DNA of 64,000 nt from the NCBI GenBank assembly GCA_965248755.1, contig OZ252149.1, positions 2,066,295 to 2,130,294 of the forward strand, given 5' to 3'. Source of the DNA: Candidatus Latescibacterota bacterium (GTDB lineage Bacteria > Latescibacterota > CBDEFO01). The notes beneath the pieces are model-generated. The model was not told the origin of the DNA, ran no database searches, and saw only the letters and a program-made list of their open reading frames with translations. This document shows positions 19,231 through 54,948 of the stretch, in pieces. The position numbers and the translations under genes were made by a program. Every line of letters starts with the position of its first letter. The stretch's first letter is position 1.

Positions 19231-19534
19231 AATGATATCTCTTACCTTCAGTGATCGCGAGGGCTGAAACCGCGTGGCAATCTGAACGGAAGGGAGGATC
19301 TGTCTCTTACTACCATATGCTGTCTATGGTTTACTTACTATAATATATCATCCTTTCCTTGGATAGGCAATATCCTTTCTTGCTTGAGACAATTTCTGAT
19401 ATATGAACAGGAAGAAAAGCTTGCTGCGAAGTTGAATCCTCTTTACATCCTGAAAGAAATTTAGTAGTATAGCTCAAGTTGTGCCCTCGTACTAAGACGC
19501 CAAACTCATCAGAACTCAGTTCAAAGGATAACAA

Positions 19535-27760: not shown

Positions 27761-28349
27761 AATGGCTTGACTACAAGCAGTTTGTTTATTAAAATAACTA
27801 CATCTGTATCTATATTCACCACTTTGATAGATTCGTTTGGAACTAAAAATGAACCTCGCCTGCTGTTGTCACCTCCAAGGGGTTTAGCGACAGAGCACCT
27901 GAACTTAAGGGTAACGTTTCAATATAATCCAAAGATGTTGAGTTGTCAAGCACTAAAGTAAGGTAAATAATACAATTATAGTCATCTGTTTTGCGCCAAC
28001 ATGGTTGTATGCCCTCAAAAGTTGCATGGCCCTTCGTCTCATACGGCTAAATAACTGCAAAGAGACAATGTCTGCAGGCAGCTGTGATATCATCAGTTAC
28101 GATCTACAAGACGTTTGCCTATTTTATCACACTGCGTGCCTTGAAGGACAAAGGTGATGTCTTTTTGCTTGAGCTTTTTTACAGGGATCCAAACATGGGA
28201 GGTATCCGATGACATCATACGAACGGTTTATGTGCGCCCTTGAAACATGAGGGGCTTGGGTTCGGCGTGGTAGGCCAGACATTCTTGTCTGACATGGGCG
28301 AGGAGACCTCGCCCCTACACTACTTTACTTGAGGAGGAAGATTGCCGTA

Positions 28350-32194: not shown

Positions 32195-32195
32195 T

Positions 32196-33887
32196 ATGGA
32201 AAAATTAGACCCCATACAATTAGAAGTCCTCTGGAACAGGCTGATCTCCATCACACAGGAGCAGGCCGCCGCTCTGATACGGTCGTCCTTCACCACGGTC
32301 GTGAGAGAGGCGGAGGACATATCGGCCGGGGTGTTCGACACGAGGGGCAACATGGTAGCCCAGGCGATCACGGGGACTCCGGGCCATATAAATAGCATGG
32401 CAAACGCAGTCAGATTCTTCCTTGAGAGGTATCCTTTAGAGTCCCTCAGACCCGGAGACACGCTCATTAGCAACGATCCCTGGCTTACGTCGGGACATCT
32501 CAACGACATCACTGTAGTCACTCCTACTTTCAAAGGTGACAGACCTGTAGGTCTCTTTGCGAACATCTGCCACGCTATGGACATTGGCGGAAGGACGATG
32601 GGAGCCGATGCCCGCGAGGTCTTCGAAGAGGGACTCTACATCCCTGTTATGAAGCTCTGCAACAAGGGTGAATTCGATCAGACCTTAATTAGACTCATCC
32701 GGGCTAACGTCCGAGTCCCTGACCTGGTAATGGGTGATATAACCGCCCAGGTATCGGCCAACGAAGTCGGTTCTGAAAAACTTTCTGAGTGCATGGACGA
32801 ATATGGTCTCGATACCATCGAGCCCCTATCAGATGCGATAATCGATCGCTCGGAAGAGGCCATGAGAGATGCTATATCAGAGATCCCGAACGGCACGTAT
32901 AGAGATGAAATACGCATGGACGGCTTCGACGAAGACATAATCGTCAAAGTGGCCATAACCGTCGAGGACAGAGACATCAACGTGGACTACACGGGGACGT
33001 CTCAAGAATCCGACAGGGGCATAAACGTGGTGTTCAACTACTGCCACGCCTACACCACATATCCGCTCAAGTGCGCTGTCAACCCCGAAGTCCCCAACAA
33101 CGAAGGAAGCTTCAGACCCGTGACGGTCCATGCTCCCGAAGGTTGCATACTCAACGCCCTGTGGCCTGCACCAGTAAGCGGAAGACACATACTCGGACAC
33201 TTCCTCTACGGTGCTATCTTCGGCGCCCTTTCCAAGGTCATGCCCGAAAGGGTCACAGCCGAAGGCTCGTCCAACTTATGGAACACGCAGTTTGACGGAT
33301 ACGATCAAAATGGTCAGAAGTTTGCATACATCTACTTTTCATCGGGAGGGACAGGCGCCCGCCCCACCTCAGATGGTATCTCCGCTGCGGCATTCCCCAG
33401 CGGCGTCCTCGGAGTCCCGGCCGAGGTCATAGAGAACGTATCCCCGCTCTTTATGAAAAGGCGGGAGCTCATCTCCGACTCAGGCGGACCCGGTAAATTC
33501 AGGGGCGGCCTCGGACAGAAGATGGTCATAAGCGTAAGGAGCGACAGGCCCGCCGTACACTCCTGTATGTACGACCGCATAAAGAATCCGGCCAGAGGGT
33601 TTGCAGGTGGCAGTCCCGGAAGACCCGGAAGCTTTTATCTTTCCCATGGAACTTATCCACATCCAAAACGTAGGTACGTATTGGAGCCCGGAGTCGAAGT
33701 CCATCTGGACCTCCCCGGCGGGGGCGGCTTCTACCTGCCTTCTGAAAGGGACGCCGAAATGGTCCTAAAAGACGTGATAAACGGACTCGTCTCCGTAAAG
33801 AGCGCAAAAGAGGACTACAAAGTGTGGATAGATGAGAAGGCTATGACTATAGATTACGAAAAGACGGAGCAACTACGCTTAAAGTAG
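32196..33887 (+). CDS. hydantoinase B / oxoprolinase-family (HyuB) protein
   Basis: 563 aa. The N-terminus (DPIQLEVLWNRLISITQEQAAALIRSSFTTVVREAEDISAGVFD) is typical of Hydantoinase_B. Overlapping stop/start with the upstream gene. Confidence 0.9.
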   Translation: MEKLDPIQLEVLWNRLISITQEQAAALIRSSFTTVVREAEDISAGVFDTRGNMVAQAITGTPGHINSMANAVRFFLERYPLESLRPGDTLISNDPWLTSGHLNDITVVTPTFKGDRPVGLFANICHAMDIGGRTMGADAREVFEEGLYIPVMKLCNKGEFDQTLIRLIRANVRVPDLVMGDITAQVSANEVGSEKLSECMDEYGLDTIEPLSDAIIDRSEEAMRDAISEIPNGTYRDEIRMDGFDEDIIVKVAITVEDRDINVDYTGTSQESDRGINVVFNYCHAYTTYPLKCAVNPEVPNNEGSFRPVTVHAPEGCILNALWPAPVSGRHILGHFLYGAIFGALSKVMPERVTAEGSSNLWNTQFDGYDQNGQKFAYIYFSSGGTGARPTSDGISAAAFPSGVLGVPAEVIENVSPLFMKRRELISDSGGPGKFRGGLGQKMVISVRSDRPAVHSCMYDRIKNPARGFAGGSPGRPGSFYLSHGTYPHPKRRYVLEPGVEVHLDLPGGGGFYLPSERDAEMVLKDVINGLVSVKSAKEDYKVWIDEKAMTIDYEKTEQLRLK

Positions 33888-37849: not shown

Positions 37850-38960
37850 AAGCTAACTAGACGAAACAAACAGAAAGATATATCTATCGAATAATCGTCC
37901 GGTAAAGGCACATGATATGCACTCTTGACATAGTTAGAGAGTCGAGAGTCGAGAGTCAAGATTGGGAAGTTAAAAAGTTGAGGGTCGAGGTTTTCTGTGC
38001 GTTCGTGTTGGGCGGCTATTTGTAAAGTGGTTTTGAAGTCTTTGTAGCTATTATGTCTTTGGGTATTGAACAGCCATTGATAGGTTTGGAGTTTTAGACA
38101 GAGGTTGGAACGGTTGATAGTCTTGATGGTGTCGTAGAATTCATATTCGATTAGGCCGTGGGCGCGTTCTACATCGGATTGGTGGGTAGTTGCTCCAGGT
38201 GGGATGCGTTTATGTTTTACTCCTTGTCGTTCGATAAGGATGGTAAAGAGGGTCTTTTTGAGGGCATCCTTCTGTATTGACGAATTGGCTGCCGTTGTCG
38301 GTTTGGATCTTTCGTGGATAGACCTTGTGGTCTTCCAGGTGTTGGAGTAATGCTTCGGCGAAGATGCAGGAGTTGATGAGGGTCTGTTCGTCTGCCAGGC
38401 TTACAAAAAGAGCCCCTGTTTTGACGTCTCTGGCAGTATACTGGAACATAGGGAGTTGGGCACCTGTTTTGTAGTGTTGTTTCAGGTAGTTGGGGATGTC
38501 GCACAGATGTTTGACATCGATCTGGATATGTTCATAGGGACGTAATTTCTTCTCGCACTGGTAAGCCAGCACTTTTCTTTTCCACTTTCGTTTACGTCTT
38601 TTAAAGAGATCATGCTTATCTAGTTAGCCTAAGCAGTCGGTTTGGAAGGTATTTGACTGACTTGAACATTGTGTGTTCGGAGGAAACCTGGTAGATATGG
38701 GTATCCCAAACAAGCATAGACCTGTCGGAACTCTACAAAAAGCTATTTGATTTTCTTTGGGAAGGCATATTAAGGTTTATTGGTGCTTTGGTGTCATTTG
38801 GTAGACTCTTGATGGATCGATCTTGTCGATAGCAGTTGAGCTACTTTCTGACGCTCTGGACCACCTTTTTCGCAGCTCGACAGGATTACGATTAAGAACA
38901 AGAACATCGCTATAAGTGATTGCATTCTCCATGGTATCTACCCTCCTTTTTTCAGTCCTC
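37850..38960 (-). mobile_element. IS481-family transposase gene remnant (fragmented and frameshifted)
   Basis: ORF 38210..38572 contains HIQIDVKHL...YTARDVKTGALFVS...IQTDNGSQF (DDE motifs). The C-terminal part (KTLFTILIERQGVKHKRIPPGATTHQSDVERAHGLIEYEFY) is in another frame. There is no intact N-terminal HTH. A (GAGAGTC)x3 repeat lies at 37937..37957. Confidence 0.55.
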
Positions 38961-39229
38961 ACCTAAATATAGGCAAAATTATCCCGTGAGGGTGGATACC
39001 ATGTGCCTTTACTCTTCTAAAATCACAATTTCTCACTTGACTTAAACCCACAGCTATCTTATCTTTTAAACCTTAACCCTTTTCCCCAAAAAAGTTCTTC
39101 GACCACTTCGCCACTTCGTGCCCCCTGCAAAAAGGGGGTCGCAGCGACGCACGCAGTGCCCACGCTACCTTTGGGGAGGACCTTCAAAGCCCAAAATTAC
39201 ATTCTATAAAGTTAAGGAGCTAGAAAGCC

Positions 39230-39613
39230 ATGCTCACAGATTATGCAGGTGTACTTATCTTCCTTACGGTCGGGACACTCTTTATTTTGGTAAGTCTGAC
39301 TTTAGCCAGAATCTTCCGCGCTAATGATCCGACACCTGAAAAGCTGACGCCCTACGAGTGCGGCGAGGAACCTGAGGGCGGAGCCTGGATACAGTTCAAC
39401 ATAAGGTTTTACATTATAGCTTTGATTTTCATAATATTCGACGTAGAGATCGTCTTCCTCTTCCCCTGGGCTGTGGTCTACAAGAGTCTGGGCTTTTTCG
39501 CCCTTGTGGAGATGATGATCTTTGTATCTATACTCCTTGTGGGGCTTGCCTATGTCTGGAAGAAAGGTGACCTTGAATGGGTCAAGCCTCAGTCGCCTTA
39601 TGGAAACAAGTAG
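39230..39613 (+). CDS. nuoA: NADH-quinone oxidoreductase subunit A
   Basis: 127 aa with 3 TM helices. PYECGEEP and FDVEIVFLFPWAVV motifs. Confidence 0.9.
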   Translation: MLTDYAGVLIFLTVGTLFILVSLTLARIFRANDPTPEKLTPYECGEEPEGGAWIQFNIRFYIIALIFIIFDVEIVFLFPWAVVYKSLGFFALVEMMIFVSILLVGLAYVWKKGDLEWVKPQSPYGNK

Positions 39614-39620
39614 ACAGTAG

Positions 39621-39643
39621 CCCACGATAGATTCAATCGGGGG
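39621..39643. repeat. hairpin repeat copy (CCCACGATAGATTCAATCGGGGG) between nuoA and nuoH
   Basis: Family match. Confidence 0.6.
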
Positions 39644-39695
39644 TAGAAAGAGGCGACACTTCCTATCCCTTTACCGTTTACTAATGTAGAGAAAT

Positions 39696-40799
39696 ATGGA
39701 ATCCTTTGTAGACACGGTCATCGACTTAGTATCCCCTTTATCCCAACTTTCCCGGGATTGGGTGTATCTGGGGCTTACTCTGCAGGATTGGGTATATCTG
39801 GGGCTTACTCTGGTCGGATGCGCCTCCGTTTTGGGATTTATCTCGGTCTTTGCCCTATTTGCTATCTGGCTGGAGCGCAAGGTCTCAGCCCATATGCAGG
39901 ACAGACTCGGACCCATGAGGGTCGGGGGATGGCACGGTTGGGCGCAGACTATCGCTGACGGGATTAAACTCTTTTTGAAAGAGGACATCATCCCGGCTAT
40001 GGCGGACAGAAAGCTCTTCACCTTAGCTCCTCTTGTCGTATTTGTCGGCTCATTCGCGGTCTTTGTGGCCGTTCCCTTCGGGGATAGATTGATAGTTCGG
40101 GATCTGAACATAGGGATCTTTTATATCCTTGCGATATCCTCCCTGGTGGTTATTGGGGTTGTAATGGCAGGTTGGTCATCTAACAACAAGTGGTCGCTTT
40201 TGGGGGCTATGCGCTCTGCCGCCCAGGTAGTAAGTTACGAAATACCCGTTGCGCTTGCCCTTTTATCCGTCATAATGATAGTCGGAAGCTTGAGTATGCA
40301 GGACATAGTCAAAGACCAGAGTGGCGGATTTTTGAACTGGTTCATCTTCAGGAACCCGTTCACTTTTTTGGCCTTCTTCATATACTTTGTGGCCTCGCTT
40401 TCTGAGGTCAACCGGACCCCTTTTGACATCCCAGAAGCCGAGTCAGAATTGGTTGCAGGATACCACACGGAATACAGCGGAATGAGATTTTCCTTCTTTT
40501 TTATAGCCGAATACGCAAACATGTTCGCCGTCAGCGCCATAGCGACCACGATCTTTTTGGGAGGATGGCAAGCGCCCTGGGGAGACCCCATAGTCGCGGA
40601 TGGCGCCATCTGGTTTATAGGCAAAGCCACCTTCCTTGTCTTTGTGCAGATGTGGATTAGGTGGACACTCCCAAGACTCAGAGTAGATCAACTTATGTAC
40701 ATCGGATGGAAAGTCCTTACGCCATTTTCGTTTGCCAATATAATTGGAGTAGGATTATGGATGTACATCTTCGACTTGTTTGATAAAGTGCAAGGATGA
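39696..40799 (+). CDS. nuoH: NADH-quinone oxidoreductase subunit H
   Basis: 367 aa. [39 protein letters not shown] is the NuoH/ND1 signature. Confidence 0.9.
39757..39816. repeat. 30-bp in-frame tandem duplication inside the nuoH 5-prime end
   Basis: GATTGGGTGTATCTGGGGCTTACTCTGCAG followed by GATTGGGTATATCTGGGGCTTACTCTGGTC. The protein reads [20 protein letters not shown]. Confidence 0.8.
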
Positions 40800-41316
40800 G
40801 ATGACCGCCTCAGATATAATATTCTACATCTTCGCTTTCATAACCGTCGGTTCGGGGGCCGTCGTAGTCTTTTCAAAAAGGATAGTCTATTCGGCCTTTG
40901 CCCTCCTCTTTACCTTCTTCGGAGTTGCAGGACTCTACATCTTACTTTCCGCTGACTTCCTCGCCGCCACACAGGTCATAATCTACGTAGGAGGCATACT
41001 GGTCCTCCTTTTATTCGGAGTTATGATGACCCACAGAGTATATGACGTCCAGATCAGACAGCAGAGGATCAATTTTCTACCTGGAATGTTAGTGGTAATC
41101 TTCGTCTTCGCCATGCTGCTGACAGTTATCTTCAACAAAGATTCCTGGATGCCTCCCGTCGAGAAGGAGATTACGTCTACGACGTCACAGATCGGAAACA
41201 TGCTTATGACGGACTTCCTACTCCCGTTTGAAGTAGCCTCGGTTCTTTTGTTGATCGCACTTATGGGGGCTGCACTTATAGCGCGAAGAGAAAAAGGCGA
41301 GGGAGGGAAAAGATGA
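40780..41316 (+). CDS. nuoJ: NADH-quinone oxidoreductase subunit J
   Basis: 178 aa. TM protein with the [22 protein letters not shown]6 pattern. Confidence 0.85.
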
Positions 41317-41618
41317 TAACTTTGGAACACTACCTTGTAGTGAGCGCAATTCTCTTTTGCCTTGGAGCCTTCGGCGTAATAACCAGAAGGAACGCTGTAA
41401 GCATCCTTATGGGGATAGAGCTTATCTTAAACTCTGCCAATATAAATTTTGTAGCTTTTGCTCGCTATACCGCGCAGGGACTCGAAGGGCAGGTGGTGGC
41501 GATCTTCGTGATCACATTGGCCGCCGCCGAAGCCGCAGTAGCATTAGCGATTGTGCTGAACATATACAGGAGCTTCCACATTATAGATGTAGACGAGGCG
41601 GACGCCCTGAAAGAGTGA
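41313..41618 (+). CDS. nuoK: NADH-quinone oxidoreductase subunit K
   Basis: 101 aa. HYLVVSAILFCLGAFGVITRRN...GIELILNSANINFVAF...AAAEAAVALAIV (ND4L). Confidence 0.9.
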   Translation: MITLEHYLVVSAILFCLGAFGVITRRNAVSILMGIELILNSANINFVAFARYTAQGLEGQVVAIFVITLAAAEAAVALAIVLNIYRSFHIIDVDEADALKE

Positions 41619-41687
41619 CTTGTGGCAGGTTTATGCAGACTGTATAATCACAGTTAGGGCGACTCGCACGCACATGCACAACGCAAT

Positions 41688-42407
41688 ATGAGGAGAAATA
41701 TGCTTGATCGAATCTCAGACGGGCGCACCGACTTGGTGTTCGATTATCTATCAGAAGGCCATGCCGCCAACTCCGTGGACAGAAATGGAGTGTCTCTAAT
41801 CAAATGGTGCGCTTATTACGGCGATGTCAGTGCAATACGATTCCTGCTCGCCAACGGTGAATCACTCGAGTCGTTCGGAGAAAACCTCGACCTCAACGGC
41901 GCTGCGTTTCAAGGGCACTGGCAACTATGCCAGTTTCTCATCGAAAATGGCGCTGACGTAAATCATCCTCTGCCGGATACAGGAGAGACGCCACTGCACG
42001 CGGCCTTATGCAAAGCCAATCGCCCTGCATACAACCACGTCATCAAAATTCTACTCGCCAATGGTGCGAATCCCAATTGCGTGACAAAGGAATCCGTTGA
42101 AACGGGTTGCTTCATGCGAGATTGCAGAACGAAAGCCGAAACACCCCTCCATCGTGCCGCCGCCTTTGGCACCGAAGAGGCCATCCAACTTCTTCTGGAT
42201 GCAGGCGCGACCATCGATGCCAAAGACATGAATGGAGATTCTCCGATCACCTGGGCCAGTTGGCACCTGCGCCCGGACTTCATTCTCAAGAAACTCTGTT
42301 ACGGTGACTTTTCCATTCATCCAGATAGAATAGCGCGCTCCATAAGCTACCGCGGCACCGGCTGGAGTCCCATGGAATCCTTTCTACTTGGGGAACCACA
42401 TGTCTGA
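41688..42407 (+). CDS. ankyrin-repeat protein
   Basis: At least 4 ANK repeats (TPLHAALCKAN...VIKILLANGANPN; TPLHRAAAFGTEEAIQLLLDAGATIDAKDMNGDSPITWAS). Confidence 0.8.
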   Translation: MRRNMLDRISDGRTDLVFDYLSEGHAANSVDRNGVSLIKWCAYYGDVSAIRFLLANGESLESFGENLDLNGAAFQGHWQLCQFLIENGADVNHPLPDTGETPLHAALCKANRPAYNHVIKILLANGANPNCVTKESVETGCFMRDCRTKAETPLHRAAAFGTEEAIQLLLDAGATIDAKDMNGDSPITWASWHLRPDFILKKLCYGDFSIHPDRIARSISYRGTGWSPMESFLLGEPHV

Positions 42408-42485
42408 CACTGTTTGTCGGCCTAACAAGCGCATGAAGCTGACAGGAGATTTTGAGAGTTATATGAGAACACAGCGGGAAACACA

Positions 42486-44507
42486 ATGATAGAATTGGCC
42501 TGTATAGTACTGCTTTTACCTCTCTTGGCCTTCACCATACAGATATTTGTGGGCAAAAGACTCCCAAGAGGGGGAGACTGGCTCCCCACTGGGGCTATGT
42601 TTCTTTGTCTGGGACTCTCCGTAGTAATCTTGGCCAAAGTGTTAGCGGCGTACGATCCCGACTATAAAGAGACCTTTTCCTTTATGTGGATCGATATCGG
42701 CGACTTCAGAGTTGAAGGGGGCATCCTCTTGGACAACGTCACGGCCATTATGCTTGTGGTCGTGACTCTGGTAAGTGCTCTTGTGCACCTCTACTCTATA
42801 GGCTACATGCACGATGATCCACTCTACTCTCGCTTCTTCGCGTACTTGGGTCTATTCTCTTTTTCGATGTTAGGGCTTGTGCTCTCTGATAATTTTCTTT
42901 TCTTATACTGCTTCTGGGAGCTTGTGGGGCTTACCTCATATCTCTTGATAGGCTTCTGGTTCGAACGCCCTGCCGCCGCCTCTGCCGGAAAGAAAGCCTT
43001 TATCGTTACAAGGATAGGCGACGTGGGGATGTTCATAGGGATAATGATAATCTTCAGTCAGATCGGTAAATTCGGCTATCAGGGCGTATTCGACAGCGTG
43101 GCACAGGGAGAACTCAGCGGAACGCTTTTGACCGTTGCCGGTGTTTGCATCTTCTTCGGAGCAGTCGGGAAATCCGCGCAGTTTCCGCTCCACGTCTGGC
43201 TCCCGGATGCGATGGAGGGTCCCACTCCCGTTAGTGCGCTTATACACGCCGCAACGATGGTCGCAGCAGGCGTCTATCTTGTGGTCAGGGTGTTTCCATT
43301 CCTCTCACCCGATGCACTCACGTTCATCGCATATACAGGAGTCATAACAGCCTTCCTCGGCGCGACCATAGCGATAGCCCAAAACGACATAAAGCGCGTC
43401 CTTGCCTACTCCACCATAAGCCAACTTGGATATATGATGCTCGGACTCGGCGTCGGAGCATATGTAGCAGGCTTCTTTCATCTGGTAACACACGCGGCAT
43501 TTAAGGCATGCCTCTTCCTCTGCTCAGGCTCTGTCATCCACGCCCTCGGCACGCAGGATATGAGAGAGATGGGCGGGCTCAAAGATAAGATGCCCATAAC
43601 TTTCAAGACGATGCTCATCGCCACGTTAGCAATTTCCGGCGTCCCTTTGACATCGGGGTTTTTAAGCAAAGACGCCATCCTTGCGGGAAGTTTGGGATTC
43701 GGCTTCTTCGAGCAACCCCGGCACATGCTGTTGCCGCTATTAGGATTTATCACCGCCGGAATGACGGCATTCTATATGTTCAGACTGATATTTATGACCT
43801 TCTACGGCCAACCCAGAGACAGAGAAAAATATGAGCACGCACACGAATCTCCAAAGTCGATGACGATACCTTTGGTAGTCCTTTCGTCTTTGACTTTTTT
43901 CTTTTTCTACACATTTAACTTCAACCCCTTCTCCACATCTGGCTGGTTCTATGATATAATCCATAAGCCCGCATCGAGCGTCCACCAAGCTGTGGGAACA
44001 GTGGATGCAGGCTATGTCCTCGCCTCATCGGAAGCCCACGACCCTGCGCACATTCCCGCCCTGATGCTCTCCCTCCTTATAGCAGCAGGGGGCATATATC
44101 TTGCTTATTTGACCTATTACAAGGGAAGAATCTCGGCGGACGCTTGGGCTGACAGATTCAGCTTCACCTATAGACTCATATATAACAAATGGTACTTCGA
44201 TGAACTTTATCACTTTATAGTCATCCGACCTACACTTGCCATCAGATCGTTTTTAGGATGGTTCGACCAGAAGGTCATCGACGGCGTCGTCAACGGAGCC
44301 GCCCGCATCACCACGTTCATTTCATTCCTTGAGGGACGCTTCGACAATATAGTTATAGACGGACTCGTCAACCAGACTGCAGGAGCTGTAATAGGGGCAG
44401 GATCTATCTTCAGAAAGATACAGACAGGAAGGGTACAGACATATATTATGTTCGCCCTTGTGGGAGCGATTATCATATTTTTGATACGTGTGGCTGTAGA
44501 AAAATAA
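42486..44507 (+). CDS. nuoL: NADH-quinone oxidoreductase subunit L
   Basis: 673 aa. Polytopic, ND5-type motifs (WLPDAMEGPTPVSALIHAATMVAAGVYL). Confidence 0.9.
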   Translation: MIELACIVLLLPLLAFTIQIFVGKRLPRGGDWLPTGAMFLCLGLSVVILAKVLAAYDPDYKETFSFMWIDIGDFRVEGGILLDNVTAIMLVVVTLVSALVHLYSIGYMHDDPLYSRFFAYLGLFSFSMLGLVLSDNFLFLYCFWELVGLTSYLLIGFWFERPAAASAGKKAFIVTRIGDVGMFIGIMIIFSQIGKFGYQGVFDSVAQGELSGTLLTVAGVCIFFGAVGKSAQFPLHVWLPDAMEGPTPVSALIHAATMVAAGVYLVVRVFPFLSPDALTFIAYTGVITAFLGATIAIAQNDIKRVLAYSTISQLGYMMLGLGVGAYVAGFFHLVTHAAFKACLFLCSGSVIHALGTQDMREMGGLKDKMPITFKTMLIATLAISGVPLTSGFLSKDAILAGSLGFGFFEQPRHMLLPLLGFITAGMTAFYMFRLIFMTFYGQPRDREKYEHAHESPKSMTIPLVVLSSLTFFFFYTFNFNPFSTSGWFYDIIHKPASSVHQAVGTVDAGYVLASSEAHDPAHIPALMLSLLIAAGGIYLAYLTYYKGRISADAWADRFSFTYRLIYNKWYFDELYHFIVIRPTLAIRSFLGWFDQKVIDGVVNGAARITTFISFLEGRFDNIVIDGLVNQTAGAVIGAGSIFRKIQTGRVQTYIMFALVGAIIIFLIRVAVEK

Positions 44508-44547
44508 CCGCGAACTATATATCCAAACTCAGGAGGAACATTAGCTG

Positions 44548-46023
44548 ATGCCGATACTTACACCCATAGTATTCGTCCCGCTGCTGGGAGCTTTGATAAT
44601 CCTGCTGATCCCTAAGCAAAACGAAAGGGCCATTAAGATCGTAGCCCTCATAGCCACAGCGGCATGCGTCCTCCTTGCTTTCAATCTATACAATTCGTTT
44701 GACCGAAGTACGACTGAAATGCAGTTTGTCGAACGGCACAGTTGGATCGAATCCTTCAATATAGAATATTTTCTGGGGATAGATGGACTCTCAGTCACGA
44801 TGGTCCTTCTGACCGCCCTTTTATCCTTCCTATGCATCCCCGTATCGTGGAAGATTAGCAAAGGTATAAAGGGCTACTTTGCGCTCTTTCTGCTCTTGGA
44901 GACCGGGATGCAGGGCGTATTCTGTTCTCTGGACTTCTTTTTGTTCTACGTATTCTGGGAGGTAATGCTTTTGCCGATGTACTTCCTCATAGGGGTATGG
45001 GGCGGCCCGCGGCGCGAATATGCGGCCATCAAGTTTTTCCTCTACACCCTTTTAGGGAGCGTCGTTCTCTTGTTGGCGATGCTGGCGTTCTACTTCACGA
45101 CGGAGCCTCACACGTTCGATATGACGGCACTCATGACCCACAGATACGGCTTCACGTTCCAGATTGCGGTCTATGTAGCTATGTTTATCGGTTTTGCCAT
45201 TAAGGTTCCGATATTTCCTTTCCATACGTGGCTCCCCGATGCGCACGTGGAGGCCCCGACAGCCGTAAGCGTCATTTTAGCTGGCGTCCTTTTGAAGATG
45301 GGGACTTACGGCATCCTGCGTTTTAACTTTCAGATGCTCCCAGACGCTACTAAGTACTTCGCAATTCCACTGGCTATACTCGGAGTCATAAACATAATCT
45401 ACGGGGCGCTGTGTGCGATGGCACAAACGGATCTCAAGAAGTTGGTGGCATATTCGAGCATAAGCCATATGGGATTCGTACTCCTGGGTGCCGCTTCGTT
45501 GACCTCGGCCGGGATAAACGGAGCCGTCCTTCAGATGTTCAATCACGGCACTACTACGGCCATGCTCTTCTTGCTCGTCGGCGTCATCTACGACAGAGCG
45601 CACCACAGAGACATTAATGGATTCGGAGGTCTTGGCTCTAAGATGCCCATCTACACGGGCATCACATCATTGGCTTTCTTCGCTTCGCTGGGGCTTCCGG
45701 GTCTTTCCAGCTTCATAAGCGAAGTTTTATGTTTCCTGGGCGCCTTCCAAAAATACTGGGCAGATCCCATGTACAGATGGATAGTGATAATACCTACTCT
45801 CGGAGTAGTCCTGACAGCGGGATATTTCCTCTGGACGTTTCAGAGAATGTTTCTGGGACCTTTGAATCCTAAATATGAAGACCTCCCCGAAATAAACAAA
45901 AGAGAGATCTTCAGCCTGGCTCCATTAGGGGCCATAGTCATATTCCTCGGCGTCTATCCGATGCCCGTTTTGAACCTTATGAGAACATCTTTAAACAATA
46001 TCATAAAGATGGTTGGACCCTGA
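44548..46023 (+). CDS. nuoM: NADH-quinone oxidoreductase subunit M
   Basis: 491 aa. ND4-type motifs (WLPDAHVEAPTAVSVILAGVLLKMGTYGILRF). Confidence 0.9.
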   Translation: MPILTPIVFVPLLGALIILLIPKQNERAIKIVALIATAACVLLAFNLYNSFDRSTTEMQFVERHSWIESFNIEYFLGIDGLSVTMVLLTALLSFLCIPVSWKISKGIKGYFALFLLLETGMQGVFCSLDFFLFYVFWEVMLLPMYFLIGVWGGPRREYAAIKFFLYTLLGSVVLLLAMLAFYFTTEPHTFDMTALMTHRYGFTFQIAVYVAMFIGFAIKVPIFPFHTWLPDAHVEAPTAVSVILAGVLLKMGTYGILRFNFQMLPDATKYFAIPLAILGVINIIYGALCAMAQTDLKKLVAYSSISHMGFVLLGAASLTSAGINGAVLQMFNHGTTTAMLFLLVGVIYDRAHHRDINGFGGLGSKMPIYTGITSLAFFASLGLPGLSSFISEVLCFLGAFQKYWADPMYRWIVIIPTLGVVLTAGYFLWTFQRMFLGPLNPKYEDLPEINKREIFSLAPLGAIVIFLGVYPMPVLNLMRTSLNNIIKMVGP

Positions 46024-46100
46024 AAAGGTAGACTTGGCACCGTCTTCGTTCCCTATAAAACAGTGAACGTATATAGAGACCAACCTGTGCGTTCACCCAT

Positions 46101-47636
46101 TTGGGAAAAACAAAGGGAGAAGGATGTGCCTTACCTACTGTCTACTTCGAAAGCGAGAGCTTCGTGTTAGAAGAAATTATCAGAAGTAACATAGACAGTC
46201 TCAAATATATCTATCCTGAGATCGTCGTCGTACTCACGCTGGTTACTGTGATAATAACGGACCTGCTCCTTAAAAGGAGTAGACAGGCCCCCGTGGCGAT
46301 TGTTTCCACGATAGGGCTTATCATAGCCCTCGTTTTGATCGGTCAGCTCTACTCTGAGGAGAGTCGTTCTCTCTTTGCCGGAATGATGGCACTCGATCCA
46401 TTTTCCCTCTTTTTTAAGGCTGTCTTTTGCCTTGCCACCATAATAATAACGCTCTTTTCCATTACGTCTCCTGAGGTGCCAGAAGAACGCTCCGGTGAGT
46501 ATTATGCTCTCTTGCTGGGGATTGTCCTCGGTGGTTTTATGATGGCCTCCGCGACCAATCTCTTGATGATGTACCTTTCGCTTGAACTTGTCAGCATTCC
46601 CTCATATGTGCTTGCTTGCTTCCTCAAAAACGACCGCCGCTCTTCAGAGGCCGGGCTTAAATACTCAATCTACGGAGGCGTATCCTCAGGAGCAATGATT
46701 TACGGTATGTCTCTGCTCTACGGGGCTACGGGTTCAATTAATATTTATCAGATTAGCCAGAGCATAAGTCAGTCACAACATTACGATTTAACGCTTGTGG
46801 TATCCATCATCCTCATAATGGCCGGACTCGGATACAAGATAGCCTCAGTGCCCTTCCACTTTTGGACTCCCGACGTCTATGAAGGAGCACCCACACCTGT
46901 AACAGCCTATTTTTCAATCGTTCCCAAGGCCGCGGGATTTGCGATGCTCTCCAGATTCTTCTACTCCGGTGTATCCACATCAGAATGGATGCCGCAGATA
47001 GACTGGCCCTATCTTTTGGCCATAATATCCGCTGCCACCATGACGCTCGGCAATTTTGTGGCTATCTGGCAGGACAACTTAAAGAGGCTTCTTGCCTACT
47101 CAAGTATAGCGCACGCAGGATATATCCTTATGGGGGTTGTAATGCTCTCCCCTGATGGGCTCAAAGCCGTTATGTTCTACATCGCAGTCTACCTGTTTAT
47201 GAATTTAGGAGCCTTTCTGGTCGTCATAGCTATCTCCCAAAAGCTCAACACAGAAGACATAAAGGGCTACAGCGGTCTTGGATGGAGATCGCCCTTTGTC
47301 GCCGTCGCCATGACAATCTTCCTCTTCTCACTTACCGGGCTTCCACCTACAGGCGGATTTGTGGGGAAATTTTACCTCTTTGCCGCAGTCATAAAGGGCA
47401 AATACTACTGGCTCGCCATCGTAGGTGTCCTCAACAGTGTCGTCTCTTTGTACTACTACGCAAGGATAGTAAAGGTTATGTTCTTGGAGGATGCCCTAAC
47501 AGACGAAAAAGTGGTAATATCTACTTTGCATACAGTCCTTCTAACTCTGTTGGTTATACCTACGGTTCTGTTGGGAGTTTACTTTGTCCCTCTTGTCAAG
47601 CTGGCCGATAAATCTTTAGAGCTTTTGGGATACTAA
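46101..47636 (+). CDS. nuoN: NADH-quinone oxidoreductase subunit N
   Basis: ND2-type motifs (FHFWTPDVYEGAPTPVTAYFS). The true start is probably a GTG near 46160; upstream is a TACTGTCTACT repeat motif. Confidence 0.85.
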   Translation: MGKTKGEGCALPTVYFESESFVLEEIIRSNIDSLKYIYPEIVVVLTLVTVIITDLLLKRSRQAPVAIVSTIGLIIALVLIGQLYSEESRSLFAGMMALDPFSLFFKAVFCLATIIITLFSITSPEVPEERSGEYYALLLGIVLGGFMMASATNLLMMYLSLELVSIPSYVLACFLKNDRRSSEAGLKYSIYGGVSSGAMIYGMSLLYGATGSINIYQISQSISQSQHYDLTLVVSIILIMAGLGYKIASVPFHFWTPDVYEGAPTPVTAYFSIVPKAAGFAMLSRFFYSGVSTSEWMPQIDWPYLLAIISAATMTLGNFVAIWQDNLKRLLAYSSIAHAGYILMGVVMLSPDGLKAVMFYIAVYLFMNLGAFLVVIAISQKLNTEDIKGYSGLGWRSPFVAVAMTIFLFSLTGLPPTGGFVGKFYLFAAVIKGKYYWLAIVGVLNSVVSLYYYARIVKVMFLEDALTDEKVVISTLHTVLLTLLVIPTVLLGVYFVPLVKLADKSLELLGY

Positions 47637-47679
47637 TAACCCCAAGAAAGTGGTCTGGGCACTGCGTGCGTCGATGCCA

Positions 47680-47697
47680 ACCCTTTTTGCAAAGGGT
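47680..47697 (+). terminator. possible hairpin after nuoN (ACCCTTTTTGCAAAGGGT)
   Basis: 6-7 bp stem with a 4-nt loop. No U-tract follows, so this is weak. Confidence 0.2.
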
Positions 47698-47831
47698 ACG
47701 AAGTGGTTAAGTGGTCGGAGAGCTTCTTGAAAAAGAAGATAATGGGTAGAGTCCGACTGTAATGAATCCTTGACATTTCTTGTGAGTTACAGCATTTTGG
47801 TTGTAGTTTATCAAAGTTACTCGGAACGATT

Positions 47832-47907
<76 letters not shown>

Positions 47908-48099
47908 ATAATTCCATCATAATCAATAAGTTGTGATGGATTTCTTCTTGCCGTTAATATTTAAGTTAATGGAGTAGGAAAGCTGAACTTGGTACGTTGA
48001 GAATTTGTTGATCTGTAGCGATATTGGGGACATGAAAAATTGACCTCGCTGCAGAGGAAGAACATTTTGAGTACTATAAGACTGGTCGGCTGCGTTGTC

Positions 48100-48209: not shown

Positions 48210-48791
48210 GTGCGATACCAGGTTCCATACACAAGGAAGACCATGGAACGCTGGTATAGGATCATCAGAAAGGCAATCTACCATCACACTTTCAAGGAGT
48301 TTGAACCCCTAGAAGGTGAACTTGAGATGGATGAAACTCTCTTCGGTGGTAGGAGACCTGGTAAAAGAGGTTGGGGTTCCGAAGGCAAACAGATAGTCTT
48401 TGGCATCTATCAGAGAAAGGGTAAGGTGTTGACCTTTGCTGTCCCCTCAAGGAGTCGTGACTCACTACTGCCTCTTATTACCTAACACAGCAGACCAGGG
48501 AGCTTGTATTACACCGATAGTTGGATAGCCTACGCCTCGCTTTCTATCAGCGGCAACCGCCTGGTAGTGCCAAAAGAGAAGGGCATAGCGAAGGGAAAAG
48601 ATCACCTCAATGGGGTGGAAGGCTTCTGGTCGTATGCCAAACACTGGCTCCATCAATATCAAGGCGTTGACAAAAGCTTCTTCCACCTTTACCTTAAAGA
48701 GGTAGAGTGGCGTTTCAACCACCGCCACGAAAATCTACTTCCTCTTATGAGAAAGCTACTCGATCAACAGGCTGTAAGTGACATGAGTTAG
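48210..48791 (+). mobile_element. IS1595-family (ISXO2-like DDE) transposase C-terminal fragment, frameshifted
   Basis: ELEMDETLFGGRRPGKRGWGSEGKQIVFGIYQRKGKV, then after a frame change YYTDSWIAYASL...HLNGVEGFWSYAKHWLHQYQGVDKSFFHLYLKEVEWRFNHR. These are DDE_Tnp_IS1595 motifs. The N-terminal half is missing. Confidence 0.6.
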
Positions 48792-50474: not shown

Positions 50475-52616
50475 GTGATAAAAATGTCTTGGTGTGCAAG
50501 AATGGGTAGTATTTTATGTAAGCTGGCAGGGTTGATTCTGCTTGCTTTGATGGTCACCGCCATCTTTTTAGATGACGCCACCTGTGCGACTATCTACAGG
50601 ATCGGAAAGCCCTTTTCGGATGCAGAAAGGACCAGTCTCGAGGGGATAGGGATTGAGGTCCAGCAGTTCAGCTGGGAAGTTTATGAGTCGGTGAAGAACC
50701 TGGATGTGGACTCTCTGAAGGCGGCACATGGCGGCTCAATTGAACCCAAGTTTATCAGGCCGGGTGAGAGCATAGCCGCAACGGCTCTGGACAGAGGAGG
50801 ATGGATAGCCGAAGGTACCCAAGACGATGAGAGGCTAAGCTTCAAAGAGGGATATGAAATCGAAGGCAACGTTGCGAATAACATGATAGACGGGGATCCG
50901 ACCACGGCTTTTGTGTGGCCTAGGCCGGCGCCCCCGGGTTGGAAAAGAAACGGCGGAAGATGTCATAAAGCGCCTCACCGGATAGTTATTAACTTAGGCG
51001 GACAATTTGTCGTCGACAAAGTAAGATTCTACCCTCGTGAAGGAATATCCCCTGATGGTGAGGAATATAAGACTCACTTCATAGAGGACTACCAATTGGG
51101 TACCAGTCAAGGCCGCAGGCCGCAGGATTTCGTCGAGACCTACTTGTGTCGAGGATCAGCTTTCATCCCGAGCTTCCGACAGTTTGCCCAGTACACTCAC
51201 CCAGGAACCGATCTTGACCAATCTGGAGGTCCATCTGGCAAAAGTGAAGACCATGATGATGTTGAAAATATATTTACTGAAGTTATAATACCGCTTGACC
51301 CTCCGGAGAAAATCTCTTATGTCGCGTTGTTGATCTGGCTCCCAATTGTGAAGACGATAGAGATCGCCGAGTTTGAGGTCTTTGGGCCGGAGGGCTTTAT
51401 AGAAGAAGCCGCTTATATAGCTGACGTAATTGAGTTGGACGACATCGCCAGTTTCGGCGAGCTCACCTGGTCAGGGAGTCGTGATCCCAGGGCGGAGGCC
51501 AATATCCGAACCAGGAGCGGGACAGATCCTCAGCCGATTGTTTACTGGATACTCAAAGGTCAGCTGCGAACGCAGGTAGTTTTGCCTTCGACCAATGAGG
51601 AAGGAGAAGAGCTCAGCTTAGAGGAGTACAGAAGTGCTTTCTACAAACTCCCGGAAAATGTTTGGGCTGACTCGACTTACGATACGGAAAACTGGAGCTT
51701 CTGGTCTGCTCCTTACAAGTTTGAAAGTCCGGGAGCACCTATCGTCTCTCCTGGTCCCCGCAAATTCCTTCAGATCGGCGTGGATTTTGCCTCCGAAGTT
51801 AACGATGGCAGCCGGATCGAGTATTTACAGTTTAAGGCCTCTGTGCCTCCTGCGGCTCGAGAGATAGTAGGTGAGATCTTCCCTACAGAAGTCGAGATAG
51901 GGAAGGTAACACACAAGTTCAGCTATTTTGTCAAGGCAACGATGACAGCTGTGGATAAAGGATTCGACACCTTGGAGATCACCACACCTTATGGGGTTAG
52001 TTCGGTCGATTCGCTAAGTGTAGATGGAATCAATCAGGACGGTTTCACCTGGGTGAAAAAGGCCGACGATTCTGGCTTTGAGGTCACATTACCCAGGAAG
52101 TTGGATACAGGAGACAGCGGAGTCATAGTTGAAGTGGTCTTCCAAGCTCCTGTTTTGAGGGAGCGCGGGACCTTTTTTGACGGCAGTGTGTTCGACAGCG
52201 CACAGCCTCACGAAGTTCATCAGAAGATCAAGGCTGGCAACGTGGCAGATGAGATCGAAAGCGATGTCCTTACGGTGATAACGTCTTTGGCCGAATCGAT
52301 ATTGTCCTCACCAGAGGTCTCTCCAAATCCCTTTACACCGAATGGCGACGGTGTCAATGATGTACTGAACCTATCTTATACCATTTTGAGGCTGACTGCC
52401 CCTGTTCCTGTCTCAATCGATATATACGATCTTTCCGGTGTCTTTATAAAGACAGTCTATTCTGGGAACGACTCCGTAGGACAATACCCCCGGCAATGGG
52501 ATGGTAGAGACAGCGAGGATAATCTTGTTCCACCCGGGATATATGTGTATCGCGTATCGGTAGAGGCTCAGGAAGGGGAGGAGACGGCGACAGGGACTGT
52601 CTCTGTCGCCTATTAA
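50475..52616 (+). CDS. secreted protein with a discoidin/F5-8-type-C-like domain and a T9SS type B (CHU_C) C-terminal sorting domain
   Basis: Signal anchor. The C-terminus NPFTPNGDGVNDVLNLSY...IDIYDLSGVFIKTVY...WDGRD...PPGIYVYRVSV matches the type B CTD. Confidence 0.7.
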   Translation: MIKMSWCARMGSILCKLAGLILLALMVTAIFLDDATCATIYRIGKPFSDAERTSLEGIGIEVQQFSWEVYESVKNLDVDSLKAAHGGSIEPKFIRPGESIAATALDRGGWIAEGTQDDERLSFKEGYEIEGNVANNMIDGDPTTAFVWPRPAPPGWKRNGGRCHKAPHRIVINLGGQFVVDKVRFYPREGISPDGEEYKTHFIEDYQLGTSQGRRPQDFVETYLCRGSAFIPSFRQFAQYTHPGTDLDQSGGPSGKSEDHDDVENIFTEVIIPLDPPEKISYVALLIWLPIVKTIEIAEFEVFGPEGFIEEAAYIADVIELDDIASFGELTWSGSRDPRAEANIRTRSGTDPQPIVYWILKGQLRTQVVLPSTNEEGEELSLEEYRSAFYKLPENVWADSTYDTENWSFWSAPYKFESPGAPIVSPGPRKFLQIGVDFASEVNDGSRIEYLQFKASVPPAAREIVGEIFPTEVEIGKVTHKFSYFVKATMTAVDKGFDTLEITTPYGVSSVDSLSVDGINQDGFTWVKKADDSGFEVTLPRKLDTGDSGVIVEVVFQAPVLRERGTFFDGSVFDSAQPHEVHQKIKAGNVADEIESDVLTVITSLAESILSSPEVSPNPFTPNGDGVNDVLNLSYTILRLTAPVPVSIDIYDLSGVFIKTVYSGNDSVGQYPRQWDGRDSEDNLVPPGIYVYRVSVEAQEGEETATGTVSVAY

Positions 52617-52815: not shown

Positions 52816-54948
52816 GTGATGACAATGTCCTGGTTTACAAGAAATAGCAGTGTTCTATCAAAGCTGACAGGATTGATTCTTCTTGCTTTGGTAGTCATCA
52901 GTATCTTTTCAGATGAAGCCACCTGTGCGACTATCTACAGGATCGGAAGGCCGTTTTCACAAGCAGAGAGAGACAGTCTCGAGAGGATAGGGATTGAGGT
53001 CCAGCAGTTCAGCTGGGAAGTTTATGAGTCGGTGCAGAGTCTCGATGTGGACTCTCTGAAAGCGGCGGATGGCGGCTCAATTGAACCCAAGTTTATCAGG
53101 GAGGGTGAGAGCATAGCCGCAACGGCTCTGGACAGAGGAGGATGGATAGCCGAAGGTACCCAATCCGATGAGACGCTAGGCACCCTTGAGAGATATAAAA
53201 TCCAAGGCAACATTGGGAACAACATGATAGATGGGGATCCGACCACGGCTTTTGTGTGGCCTTGGCCGCCGCCCCCGGGGGAGCAAAGAGGCGGCGCAAG
53301 ATGTCATAATGCGCCTCACCGGATAGTTATTTACTTAGGCGGACTATTTGTCGTCGATAAAGTAAGATTCTACACTCGTGAAGGAATATCCCCTGAGGGT
53401 GAGGAATATGAGACTCACTTCATAGAGGACTATGAATTGGGTACCAGCCTTGGCCGCAGGCCGCAGGATTTCTTCGAGAGCTACTTGTGTCGAGGATCAG
53501 CTTACATCCCGAGCTTCCGACAGTTTGCCAAGTACACTCTCTCACGCACTAATACGCATGAGCCGATTGAAAATATATTTTCTGAAGTTATAATACCGCT
53601 TGATCCTCCGGAGAAAATCTCTTATGTCGCGTTGTTGATCTATACCCCAAATTTGAAGACGATAGAGATCGCCGAGTTTGAGGTCTTAGGCTTACGAGAG
53701 AGCTTTATAGAAGAATCCGCTTATATAGCTGACATAATTGAGTTGGACGACATCGCCAGTTTCGGCGAGATCACCTGGTCGGGGAGTCGTGATCCCAGGG
53801 CGGAGGCTAATATCCGAACCAGGAGCGGGACAGATCCTCAGCCGATTGTTTACTCGATACTCAAAGGTCCGCTGCTAACGCAGGTAGTTTTGCCTTCGAC
53901 CGATCAGAAAGGAGAAGAGCTCAGCTTAGAGGAGTACAGAAGTGACTTCTACAAACTCCCGGATAATGTTCGGGCTGACTCGACTTACGATACGGAAAAC
54001 TGGAGCTTCTGGTCTGCTCCTTACAAGTTTGAAAGTCCGGGAGCACCTATCGTCTCTCCTGGTCCCCGCAAATTCTTTCAGATCGGCGTGGATTTTGCCT
54101 CCGAAGTTAACGATGGCAGCCGGATCGAGTATTTACAGTTTAAGGCCTCTGTGCCTCCTGCGGCGCGAGAGATAGTTGGTGAGATCTTCCCTGCGGAAGT
54201 CGAGATAGGGAAGGTAACACACAAGTTCAGCTATTTTGTCAAGGCAACGATGACAGCTGTGGATAAAGGATTCGACAGTGTTGAGATCACCACACCTTAT
54301 AGGTTTAGTTCGGTGGATTCGCTAAGAGTAGATGGCATCAATCAGGACGGTTTCGACTTGAAGGTAAAGGAGGACAGCTTAGGCTTTGAGGTCACATTAC
54401 CTACGGATCCGGAAACTGGACTTCCTAGGAAGTTGGATACAGGAGATAGCGGAGTCATAGTTGAAGTGGTCTTCCAAGCTCCTGTTTTGAGGGAGCGCGG
54501 GACCTTTTTTGACGGCAGGGTGTTCGTCAAGGCAGAGCCTCACGAAGTTCGTCAGAGGATCAAGCCTGGCAACGTTGCAGATGAGATCGAAAGCGATGTC
54601 CTTACCGTGATAACGTCTTTGGCCGAATCGATATTGTCCTCTCCCCAGGTCTCTCCAAATCCCTTTACACCCAATGGCGATGGGGTCAATGACCTATTGA
54701 ACATATCTTATGCTATTCTGAGGTTGACTGCCCCTGTTCCTGTCTCAATCGATATATACGATCTTTCCGGTGACTTTATAAAGACAGTCTATTCTGGGAA
54801 CGACTCCGTAGGACAATATATCCGGCATTGGGATGGGGGAGACAATAAGGATAATCTTGTTCCACCCGGGATATATGTGTATCGCGTATCGGTAGAGGCT
54901 CAGGAAGGGGAGGAGACGGCGACAGGGACTATCTCTGTTGTCTATTAA
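52816..54948 (+). CDS. tandem paralog of 50475..52616 (roughly 85% identical by eye), T9SS type B CTD
   Basis: Collinear with the upstream gene, including conserved 3-prime flanking sequence. The tandem duplication unit is about 2.34 kb. Confidence 0.7.
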   Translation: MMTMSWFTRNSSVLSKLTGLILLALVVISIFSDEATCATIYRIGRPFSQAERDSLERIGIEVQQFSWEVYESVQSLDVDSLKAADGGSIEPKFIREGESIAATALDRGGWIAEGTQSDETLGTLERYKIQGNIGNNMIDGDPTTAFVWPWPPPPGEQRGGARCHNAPHRIVIYLGGLFVVDKVRFYTREGISPEGEEYETHFIEDYELGTSLGRRPQDFFESYLCRGSAYIPSFRQFAKYTLSRTNTHEPIENIFSEVIIPLDPPEKISYVALLIYTPNLKTIEIAEFEVLGLRESFIEESAYIADIIELDDIASFGEITWSGSRDPRAEANIRTRSGTDPQPIVYSILKGPLLTQVVLPSTDQKGEELSLEEYRSDFYKLPDNVRADSTYDTENWSFWSAPYKFESPGAPIVSPGPRKFFQIGVDFASEVNDGSRIEYLQFKASVPPAAREIVGEIFPAEVEIGKVTHKFSYFVKATMTAVDKGFDSVEITTPYRFSSVDSLRVDGINQDGFDLKVKEDSLGFEVTLPTDPETGLPRKLDTGDSGVIVEVVFQAPVLRERGTFFDGRVFVKAEPHEVRQRIKPGNVADEIESDVLTVITSLAESILSSPQVSPNPFTPNGDGVNDLLNISYAILRLTAPVPVSIDIYDLSGDFIKTVYSGNDSVGQYIRHWDGGDNKDNLVPPGIYVYRVSVEAQEGEETATGTISVVY

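Follow-up and report, generated by a model that had tools for sequence, protein, structure and literature searches.

A membrane-arm-only complex I gene cluster with strain-variable cargo between nuoK and nuoL in a Candidatus Latescibacterota bacterium

Introduction

The genes for one complex I are not always kept together. The ndh sets of cyanobacteria and plastids are dispersed over several groups (ndhC-K-J, ndhA-I-G-E, and scattered ndhB, ndhD, and ndhF; in plastids, ndhH-A-I-G-E-psaC-ndhD), the junction that corresponds to nuoK and nuoL is an operon boundary in both, with psaC following ndhE, and the nqo operons of Rhodothermus marinus contain co-transcribed foreign genes, riders such as a pterin dehydratase and an antiporter. 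Here, we analyze a stretch of 64,000 nucleotides from a Candidatus Latescibacterota bacterium (GenBank assembly GCA_965248755.1, contig OZ252149.1, positions 2,066,295 to 2,130,294), referred to below as the window, which carries the cluster nuoA-H-J-K-L-M-N with an ankyrin-repeat gene between nuoK and nuoL. Together, the seven products would make up the whole membrane arm, or P-module (NuoA, H, J, K, L, M, and N), of a proton-pumping complex I that is otherwise canonical. Like the split ndh and nqo sets, this locus would contribute to one enzyme made from several loci, it is broken after nuoK (the equivalent of ndhE), and it has an unrelated rider in the manner of psaC, the pterin dehydratase, and the antiporter. 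Unlike them, it groups all seven membrane genes, away from the genes of the quinone-reducing Q-module (nuoB, C, D, and I), and its cargo varies among strains of one species-level group.

According to a 2025 survey (PMC12361115), both single-cluster and split arrangements are present in most clades of complex I. A partial nuoAHJKLMN operon has been described in marine actinomycetes (Salinispora, Streptomyces sp. SM17 and SM18, and Kocuria flava) as an addition to a full nuoA-N operon (PMC6676996), and the term "marine adaptation genes" has been put forward for its genes (PMC6676996, citing Penn and Jensen 2012). The window has the identical subunit set in the identical order, again with the membrane arm only. 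It differs from the actinomycete operon, which is an extra copy, in that the listed matches, which reach down to ~54% identity, include no further NuoL on the source contig or on the contigs of its sister strains. It also carries a cargo gene, whereas none is mentioned in the description in PMC6676996. Because the nearest relatives of the subunits are not actinobacterial (no actinobacterial sequence occurs in the 80 top-ranking loci or the 120 top-ranking proteins), any resemblance between both operons is convergent.

Results and Discussion

Gene content and identity of the subunits

An initial annotation of the window, made without database searches, had read the plus strand at positions 39230-47636 as nuoA, nuoH, nuoJ, nuoK, an ankyrin-repeat gene, nuoL, nuoM, and nuoN, and Pfam and NCBIfam profile calls bear out this order (Table 1). 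All seven Nuo proteins are full length and above the Pfam gathering scores, and NuoH, K, L, M, and N pass the curated NCBIfam cut-offs, of which NuoA and NuoJ fall slightly short. Among the possible starts of nuoN, the GTG at 46164 is the one called in the sister strains described below. The lack of nuoB, C, D, and I and of nuoE, F, and G at the locus also stands, and it extends to the entire window. Pfam-verified NuoB, C, D, and I queries, taken from a canonical relative (L012; retrieved loci carry L numbers throughout), gave a best E value of 0.21 in a tblastn search against the six frames of the 64 kb, and Pfam scans of all other open reading frames (ORFs) of at least 120 amino acids in the window detected no NuoE, F, or G. 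As the ATG of nuoJ comes 1 nt after the stop codon of nuoH, there is no space for nuoI. The spacer between nuoA and nuoH had been described as about 80 bp containing a hairpin repeat; the length is right (82 bp), and the hairpin was rejected, as the spacer folds no better than chance (z = -1.37, with 19 of 200 shuffles equal) and the inverted-repeat search was empty there.

The proteins retain nearly all of the positions expected of a working enzyme of the canonical type. We considered as near-invariant any position at least 95% conserved among canonical-operon homologs (71 to 131 aligned sequences per subunit), and 367 of the 368 such residues over the seven subunits are kept (NuoA, 18/18; NuoH, 64/65; NuoJ, 13/13; NuoK, 11/11; and, for the antiporter-like subunits, NuoL, 117/117; NuoM, 90/90; NuoN, 54/54), the single change being A236S in NuoH. 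The loop Y42-E43-C44-G45 of NuoA and residues Glu36 and Glu73 of NuoK are retained, and the elements that line the quinone site, namely, this NuoA loop and the NuoH core, are intact. A distance analysis placed the subunits within ordinary operons of the FCB group, Acidobacteriota, Latescibacterota, and Gemmatimonadota, with no long branch. The seven proteins are canonical complex I subunits and not a divergent paralog family; the possibility of a divergent paralog group, which the initial annotation had left standing, is disfavored by this nesting among ordinary 11-subunit operons.

Sister strains and integrity of the locus

The same cluster is present in three sister strains (L008, L009, and L010), whose contigs measure 2.03 Mb, 408 kb, and 98 kb, respectively, and belong to three other assemblies from different samples. 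They share ~95-97% DNA identity with the window over nuoA-K and over nuoL-N (blastn), and the Nuo proteins of the four strains are 93-100% identical. The junctions between nuoA and nuoH (63-82 bp) and between nuoH and nuoJ (1-2 nt) are common to the four independent long-read assemblies. An assembly artefact in which nuoBCDI were lost through a mis-join, the objection that the initial annotation had itself foreseen, has for this reason practically no probability: both junctions recur in independent assemblies that agree on gene order, a short-read metagenome-assembled genome (MAG) of candidate division KSB1 has the identical order, and the start of nuoJ lies so close to the stop of nuoH. We regard a mis-joined contig as excluded.

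The ratio of nonsynonymous to synonymous substitution rates (dN/dS) between the window and the three sister strains is 0-0.15 in all seven nuo genes, and dN is 0 for nuoA. The seven genes are under strong purifying selection and are functional rather than decaying. Values of dS against the sister strains are 0.14-0.19 for nuoL and nuoM, downstream of the cargo slot, versus 0.04-0.10 for nuoA-K, and this rise past the slot could reflect recombination alongside cassette exchange. In L010, nuoA (~5432-5822) is interrupted by a 1-bp indel; as long reads cover that contig only ~4.3x, a sequencing error is the probable cause, rather than a pseudogene.

Comparative gene order and origin of the compact cluster

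Reference-genome loci were retrieved with NuoH, giving 80 listed matches. In 76 of these 80 loci the order is A-(B,C,D)-H-(I)-J-K-L-M-N, with nuoBCD occupying ~2.3 kb between nuoA and nuoH. The window shares with such canonical 11-subunit operons (FCB group, Acidobacteriota, and Gemmatimonadota) the seven orthologous membrane subunits, at 55-72% identity and in the same relative order, and differs from them by the absence of nuoB, C, D, and I, with gaps of 82 bp between nuoA and nuoH and 1 nt between nuoH and nuoJ, and by a nuoK-nuoL gap of 867 bp with cargo versus a median of 28 bp. Among the 80 listed loci, nuoA adjoins nuoH only in L061, the KSB1 MAG, and in the short L062.

Judging from the distance to the nearest matches, the lineage of the window is very sparsely sampled. 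The best listed reference-genome match of NuoH is 72% identical, NuoL does not exceed 60% in a JGI metagenome scan, and a comparison of NuoL with 5.8 billion proteins returned its own cluster, next one match at 68%, and the rest at 61% or less. L171, which represents the nearest lineage with a long contig (NuoL, 61%), has the operon A-B-C-D-H-I-J-K-L-M-N, and because this nearest sampled lineage has the classical 11-gene order, we take the compact A-H-J-K-L-M-N order to be derived. The genes nuoB-C-D, from the gap between nuoA and nuoH, and nuoI, from the gap between nuoH and nuoJ, would have been cleanly removed from the locus.

The KSB1 (Zhuqueibacterota) MAG L061 is the best cross-lineage match, with 71% identity in NuoL (partial, the nuoL of L061 being split into two ORFs) and 67% in NuoM. 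It has the A-H-J-K-L-M-N order in common with the window; in L061 the cluster lies in a housekeeping neighborhood, with no nuoBCDI within ~9 kb upstream or ~4 kb downstream. It differs in its nuoK-nuoL gap, which is 48 bp and free of cargo, and its NuoH is 63% identical to that of the window versus 70-72% for canonical homologs. The compact order may have an independent origin in both lineages or may go back to shared ancestry; the published KSB1/Zhuqueibacterota paper is silent on nuo gene order. Compact clusters are also found in unrelated lineages, in L150 and, with a duplicated nuoM, in L161 and L167. That the same compact order occurs in KSB1, in unrelated lineages, and in actinomycetes indicates that splitting at the boundary between the P- and Q-modules is recurrent.

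Other variants of the operon were seen among the retrieved loci. In L161 and L167 the order is A-H-J-K-L-M-M-N, and the retrieved flanks contain no nuoBCDI; 2M-type clusters, in the published descriptions consulted, include NuoC and NuoD. A second nuoA directly after nuoN suggests tandem nuo operons in L063 (~13524-13898), L074 (~11581-11985), and L086 (~17823-18227), while the minus strand of L124 and L158 holds convergent extra nuoL-M-N sets downstream of the first operon. In L015, an otherwise canonical Ignavibacteriaceae operon, a gene for a 23S rRNA intervening-sequence protein (PF05635) is located between nuoH and nuoI (10994-11383, plus strand), a further instance of small cargo within a nuo operon.

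The partner of the membrane arm

The seven membrane subunits had been expected to pair with a separately encoded peripheral module. The evidence for such a partner is indirect and consists of the 367 of 368 near-invariant residues and the strong purifying selection. Because the quinone-site elements are intact and the constraint is tight, we judge a split operon to be the most likely arrangement and, on present evidence, a probable one: nuoBCDI would be encoded elsewhere in the 4.5-Mb genome, and the enzyme would assemble from separately transcribed modules. Some observations weigh against this interpretation or weaken it. A search with the NuoD of L171 placed no match on the source contig or those of its relatives, which are 4,540,735, 2,030,145, 407,639, 748,673, and 461,973 bp long, among the 120 matches listed, all of at least ~65% identity, which is uninformative rather than negative, and the NuoL paralog test, with its floor at ~54% identity, would overlook a second operon with a more divergent NuoL. 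Moreover, an insertion sequence (IS) lies between nuoK and nuoL in L010, and yet nuoLMN show no visible decay there, so that either nuoLMN have a promoter of their own or polarity is tolerated in that strain, which makes co-transcription across the slot tentative. In addition, the scans for promoters and terminators rely on crude consensus matches.

The cluster might instead be an extra, partial paralogous set beside a complete nuo operon, acting as an isoform of the membrane arm that borrows the Q-module or as an added ion-translocating module. This is the role of the identical order in marine actinomycetes, where it was published as an additional copy (PMC6676996), about 3% of bacterial genomes have two complex I operons (PMC4453560), and tandem or extra nuo sets are seen in L063, L074, L086, L124, and L158. 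We nonetheless consider it unlikely, as the listed matches include no second NuoL from the source or sister contigs, the conservation of the subunits equals that of sole-copy canonical subunits, with tight constraint, and their closest relatives are canonical operons of the FCB and Gemmatimonadota type, not actinobacterial ones. The second partial paralogous set suggested in the initial annotation is therefore weakly disfavored, within the identity range of the NuoL test.

A membrane arm that works with a non-Nuo module (group 4 hydrogenase-like, Fpo-like, or linked to ferredoxin or H2) appears quite improbable. It would agree with the modularity of complex I and with the documented partial operons that use alternative electron-input modules, the window encodes a desulfoferrodoxin, a hint of an anaerobic or microaerophilic lifestyle, and there are no peripheral genes in its 64 kb. 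The profile scores, however, point elsewhere: NuoH, K, L, M, and N pass the Nuo cut-offs by the margins given in Table 1, while the rival models fall short (FpoH, only 300 versus 475 bits; FpoL, 558 versus 1050) and the Hyf, Mbh, and Mrp models stay far under their cut-offs for NuoL, M, and N. The residues retained are precisely those near-invariant in quinone-reducing canonical enzymes, and the closest relatives all have NuoBCDI, which leaves the Fpo- or Mbh-like partner that had been entertained for this cluster disfavored. That the genome has no NuoB, C, D, or I whatsoever, the arm being associated with a non-homologous and unrecognized electron-input module or serving as a free-standing ion translocator, we rate as very improbable.

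The nuoK-nuoL cargo slot

The region between nuoK and nuoL is where the four strains diverge. Homology with the sister strains (blastn) is lost at the final two codons of nuoK and returns ~20 bp before the ATG of nuoL, and the strain-specific cassette of the window in between, which includes the ankyrin-repeat gene, is replaced by other DNA in the sister strains (Table 1). The slot of L009 holds a 71-amino-acid ORF that overlaps an 82-amino-acid ORF by 4 nt on the same strand, a putative toxin-antitoxin (TA) pair. The larger ORF resembles YafQ_toxin (24.4 bits versus a cut-off of 30) and RelE_StbE (23.8 versus 27.9), with E values of ~4e-5 in two libraries, and the smaller one matches no antitoxin family; the assignment stays putative because the toxin is below the cut-offs and the antitoxin is unmatched. 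L008 has the same putative TA pair with a truncated toxin, and in L010 a 1.5-kb IS is inserted inside the antitoxin ORF, with the toxin ORF also present.

This 1.5-kb IS (DUF772 plus DDE_Tnp_1) was found in copies at least 99% identical at L008:5132-6657 and 15471-16992, at L009:5155-6680, and at L010:3605-5131, 7921-9445, and 17948-19473, and there is none in the 64-kb window. Two same-orientation copies in L008 flank the nuo cluster together with tRNA-Phe, like a composite transposon. An integron-like attC site at the 3' end of the cassette of the window, noticed by eye, was dropped, as it amounts to one partial core-site match with no integrase.

Of 120 loci, 8 have a nuoK-nuoL spacer longer than 200 bp, compared with 1 of 129 for nuoJ-nuoK, 3 of 106 for nuoL-nuoM, and 1 of 90 for nuoM-nuoN, which makes nuoK-nuoL the junction most often expanded in the operons compared. 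This is the point at which the proximal (A/H/J/K) and distal (L/M/N) pump modules meet, and the spacer may represent the natural boundary of both and the junction most tolerant of insertions. The gap is also expanded in L036, L021, L121, L153, L162, and L108, and in L106 it holds a same-strand gene (8894-9883, plus strand) for a 329-amino-acid protein with a zinc ribbon and tetratricopeptide repeats (TPR).

The ankyrin-repeat gene

The ankyrin-repeat protein encoded in the gap had been given as 239 amino acids, and its position is confirmed. The length probably is not: a start at ATG 41700, giving 235 amino acids, has a GAGGAG Shine-Dalgarno sequence upstream and is the start used in database entry P0001 (a 100% match that begins at Met5) and in all homologs. 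An AlphaFold2 model predicts six helix-pair ankyrin (ANK) repeats in a solenoid (predicted local distance difference test score [pLDDT], 86.6), with an insertion and a tail of low confidence, and a Foldseek search with this model matched only designed ankyrin-repeat proteins (DARPins) and gankyrin, at a probability of 1.0. No signal peptide was predicted for the protein, and PADLOC, searched for defense components, gave only generic ANK similarities.

The family to which the protein belongs is unusually well conserved, with more than 120 clusters at 75-86% identity across the full length. It evolves with an omega (dN/dS) of 0.05-0.2, dS is saturated against most homologs, and the GC content of each copy tracks that of its host. 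The hosts of the homologs (L001-L007, L172, and L173) have GC contents of 50-67%, and several are labeled Acidobacteriota or Blastocatellia. The gene of the window is 87% identical to that of L004 at the nucleotide level, over a stretch that starts 34 bp before the ATG and ends with the stop codon.

The location of this gene had been presented as a meaningful oddity of a respiratory operon, an idea that the comparisons go against, since the three sister strains are without it and the five homolog contexts examined differ from each other, share no neighbors, and contain no nuo genes. On this evidence the ankyrin gene is best described as a strain-specific passenger and not as a component of complex I. 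It would have landed in the nuoK-nuoL spacer and is probably transcribed by read-through from the nuo promoter; the spacers on both sides of it contain no terminator-like hairpin and no TAnnTTTG motif, both of which occur at the ends of the cluster. Alternatively, the protein could be an accessory subunit or assembly factor of the membrane arm that is specific to this lineage, encoded at the meeting point of the proximal and distal pump modules. The gene is on the same strand, inside the operon and with no terminator on either side, the unrelated L106 has its own solenoid-repeat gene (the zinc-ribbon and TPR protein) at the same junction, and the ankyrin family is strongly constrained, all of which are points in favor of an accessory role. 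We nevertheless hold this role to be highly improbable. In the sister strains, whose Nuo proteins are 97-100% identical to those of the window, the slot is filled by TA or IS cargo and lacks the ankyrin gene, the protein is alone in its 90%-identity cluster, the homologs live apart from nuo genes, the compact KSB1 cluster does without any insertion in its short nuoK-nuoL gap, and the predicted structure looks like a generic ANK solenoid. The sister-strain comparison largely refutes the accessory-subunit interpretation, and a literature search returned no paper linking an ankyrin gene with nuoK or nuoL in an operon.

Flanks of the cluster

The cluster is bracketed by a pair of inverted-repeat copies (Table 1) that is newly noticed here. 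Both copies are ~85% identical over ~85 nt (blastn and alignment). All four strains (the window, L008, L009, and L010) have the pair, and no further copy was seen in the window or among the remaining 168 of the 171 loci compared. The repeat was also considered as a structured RNA or a member of a known family, and this was rejected, as it has no Rfam match and its fold is not significant. IS elements are abundant on either side of the cluster. Of the features of a composite transposon, terminal inverted repeats are present, while the flanks in the window hold only decayed and unrelated IS remnants. Synteny with the sister strains (blastn) ends at 38963, shortly past the rve transposase remnant and ~270 bp upstream of nuoA.

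TABLE 1 Features of the nuo cluster and its immediate flanks in the 64-kb window
Feature	Position	Strand	Details
Transposase remnant (integrase core, rve)	38210-38572	-	Pfam rve, E = 6.9e-5, below gathering score
Left inverted-repeat copy	39092-39178	+	~90 nt; central hairpin CCCCCTGCAAAAAGGGGG; TAnnTTTG at 39166-39173, 57 bp upstream of nuoA
nuoA	39230-39613	+	127 aa; PF00507, E = 1.8e-39
nuoA-nuoH spacer	39614-39695	+	82 bp; site of nuoB, C, and D in canonical operons
nuoH	39696-40799	+	367 aa; PF00146, E = 1e-123; NF004741, 377.8 bits vs cut-off of 305
nuoJ	40801-41316	+	171 aa; PF00499; ATG 1 nt past nuoH stop
nuoK	41313-41618	+	101 aa; PF00420; NF004320, 112.6 bits vs cut-off of 57; 4-nt overlap with nuoJ
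Strain-specific cargo cassette	41613-42464	+	No similarity to sister strains, which have 650 bp of other DNA
Ankyrin-repeat gene (putative passenger)	41700-42407	+	235 aa (239 aa from ATG 41688); Pfam Ank_2, Ank_4, and Ank above gathering scores
nuoL	42486-44507	+	673 aa; NF005141, 692.5 bits vs cut-off of 556
nuoM	44548-46023	+	491 aa; TIGR01972, 634 bits vs cut-off of 263.8
nuoN	46101-47636	+	511 aa from TTG 46101, 490 aa from GTG 46164; TIGR01770, 446.9 bits vs 332.6
Right inverted-repeat copy	47645-47730	-	Reverse complement; begins 9 nt past nuoN stop
tRNA-Phe(GAA)	47832-47907	+	ARAGORN, Rfam
First terminator-like hairpin after cluster	47913-47940		Downstream of tRNA-Phe; terminator scan
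IS1595-family transposase remnant	48504-48791	+	PF12762, E = 9.9e-10

Other features of the window

The motif TAnnTTTG, the Bacteroidota-type -7 promoter motif, occurs 48 times in the window versus 26.8 expected, a count reached by 0 of 100 shuffles. Four of its occurrences (17575, 17860, 18145, and 18430) follow one another every 285 bp within a PKD-repeat gene, as a consequence of its tandem domain repeats. Many C-terminal sorting domains of the type IX secretion system (T9SS) are encoded (CHU_C and Por_Secre_tail), which, taken with the enrichment of the motif, indicates an organism of the FCB group. Three tandem genes (50475-52616, 52816-54948, and 55231-57372) code for proteins of ~710 amino acids, the first two with CHU_C/FlgD_ig T9SS sorting domains and the third without a Pfam match, and the first two show ~86% DNA identity to each other's sister-strain counterparts, which suggests a paralog array.

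Upstream of the cluster, the region 28329-33887 codes for an O-methyltransferase, then for an unusual 966-amino-acid fusion of hydantoinase/oxoprolinase A with a C-terminal S-adenosylmethionine methyltransferase, and then for hydantoinase B. A GFO/IDH/MocA oxidoreductase on the minus strand (24014-25185) is present as two ORFs with a 4-nt overlap, one for the N-terminal Rossmann domain (24793-25185) and one for the C-terminal domain (24014-24796), which represent either a frameshifted pseudogene or a sequencing indel. At 8737-11932, a RecD2-type helicase (743 amino acids) is followed directly by a Schlafen/AlbA_2 protein (313 amino acids), and both may be a defense-related pair.

Conclusions

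The membrane-arm-only cluster is real and largely ordinary, as split and partial nuo clusters are already documented, and its headline observation is one more example of a split nuo set, from a very sparsely sampled lineage. The nuoK-nuoL slot amounts to a natural experiment in which an ankyrin gene, a putative TA pair, and an IS alternate among strains with near-identical Nuo proteins. Exchange of cargo at this position fits the modular assembly of complex I from proximal and distal pumps, and it is a caution for annotation, in that genes embedded in an operon are not to be taken as accessory subunits. The partition between the P- and Q-modules is both repeated and precise, with exactly nuoB, C, D, and I lost each time, and bears on how the modules of complex I evolve and are exchanged. 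Should the Q-module prove absent from the genome, the finding would be far more important, as the recurrent arm-only clusters would then mark the P-module as an exchangeable machine that can be deployed separately.

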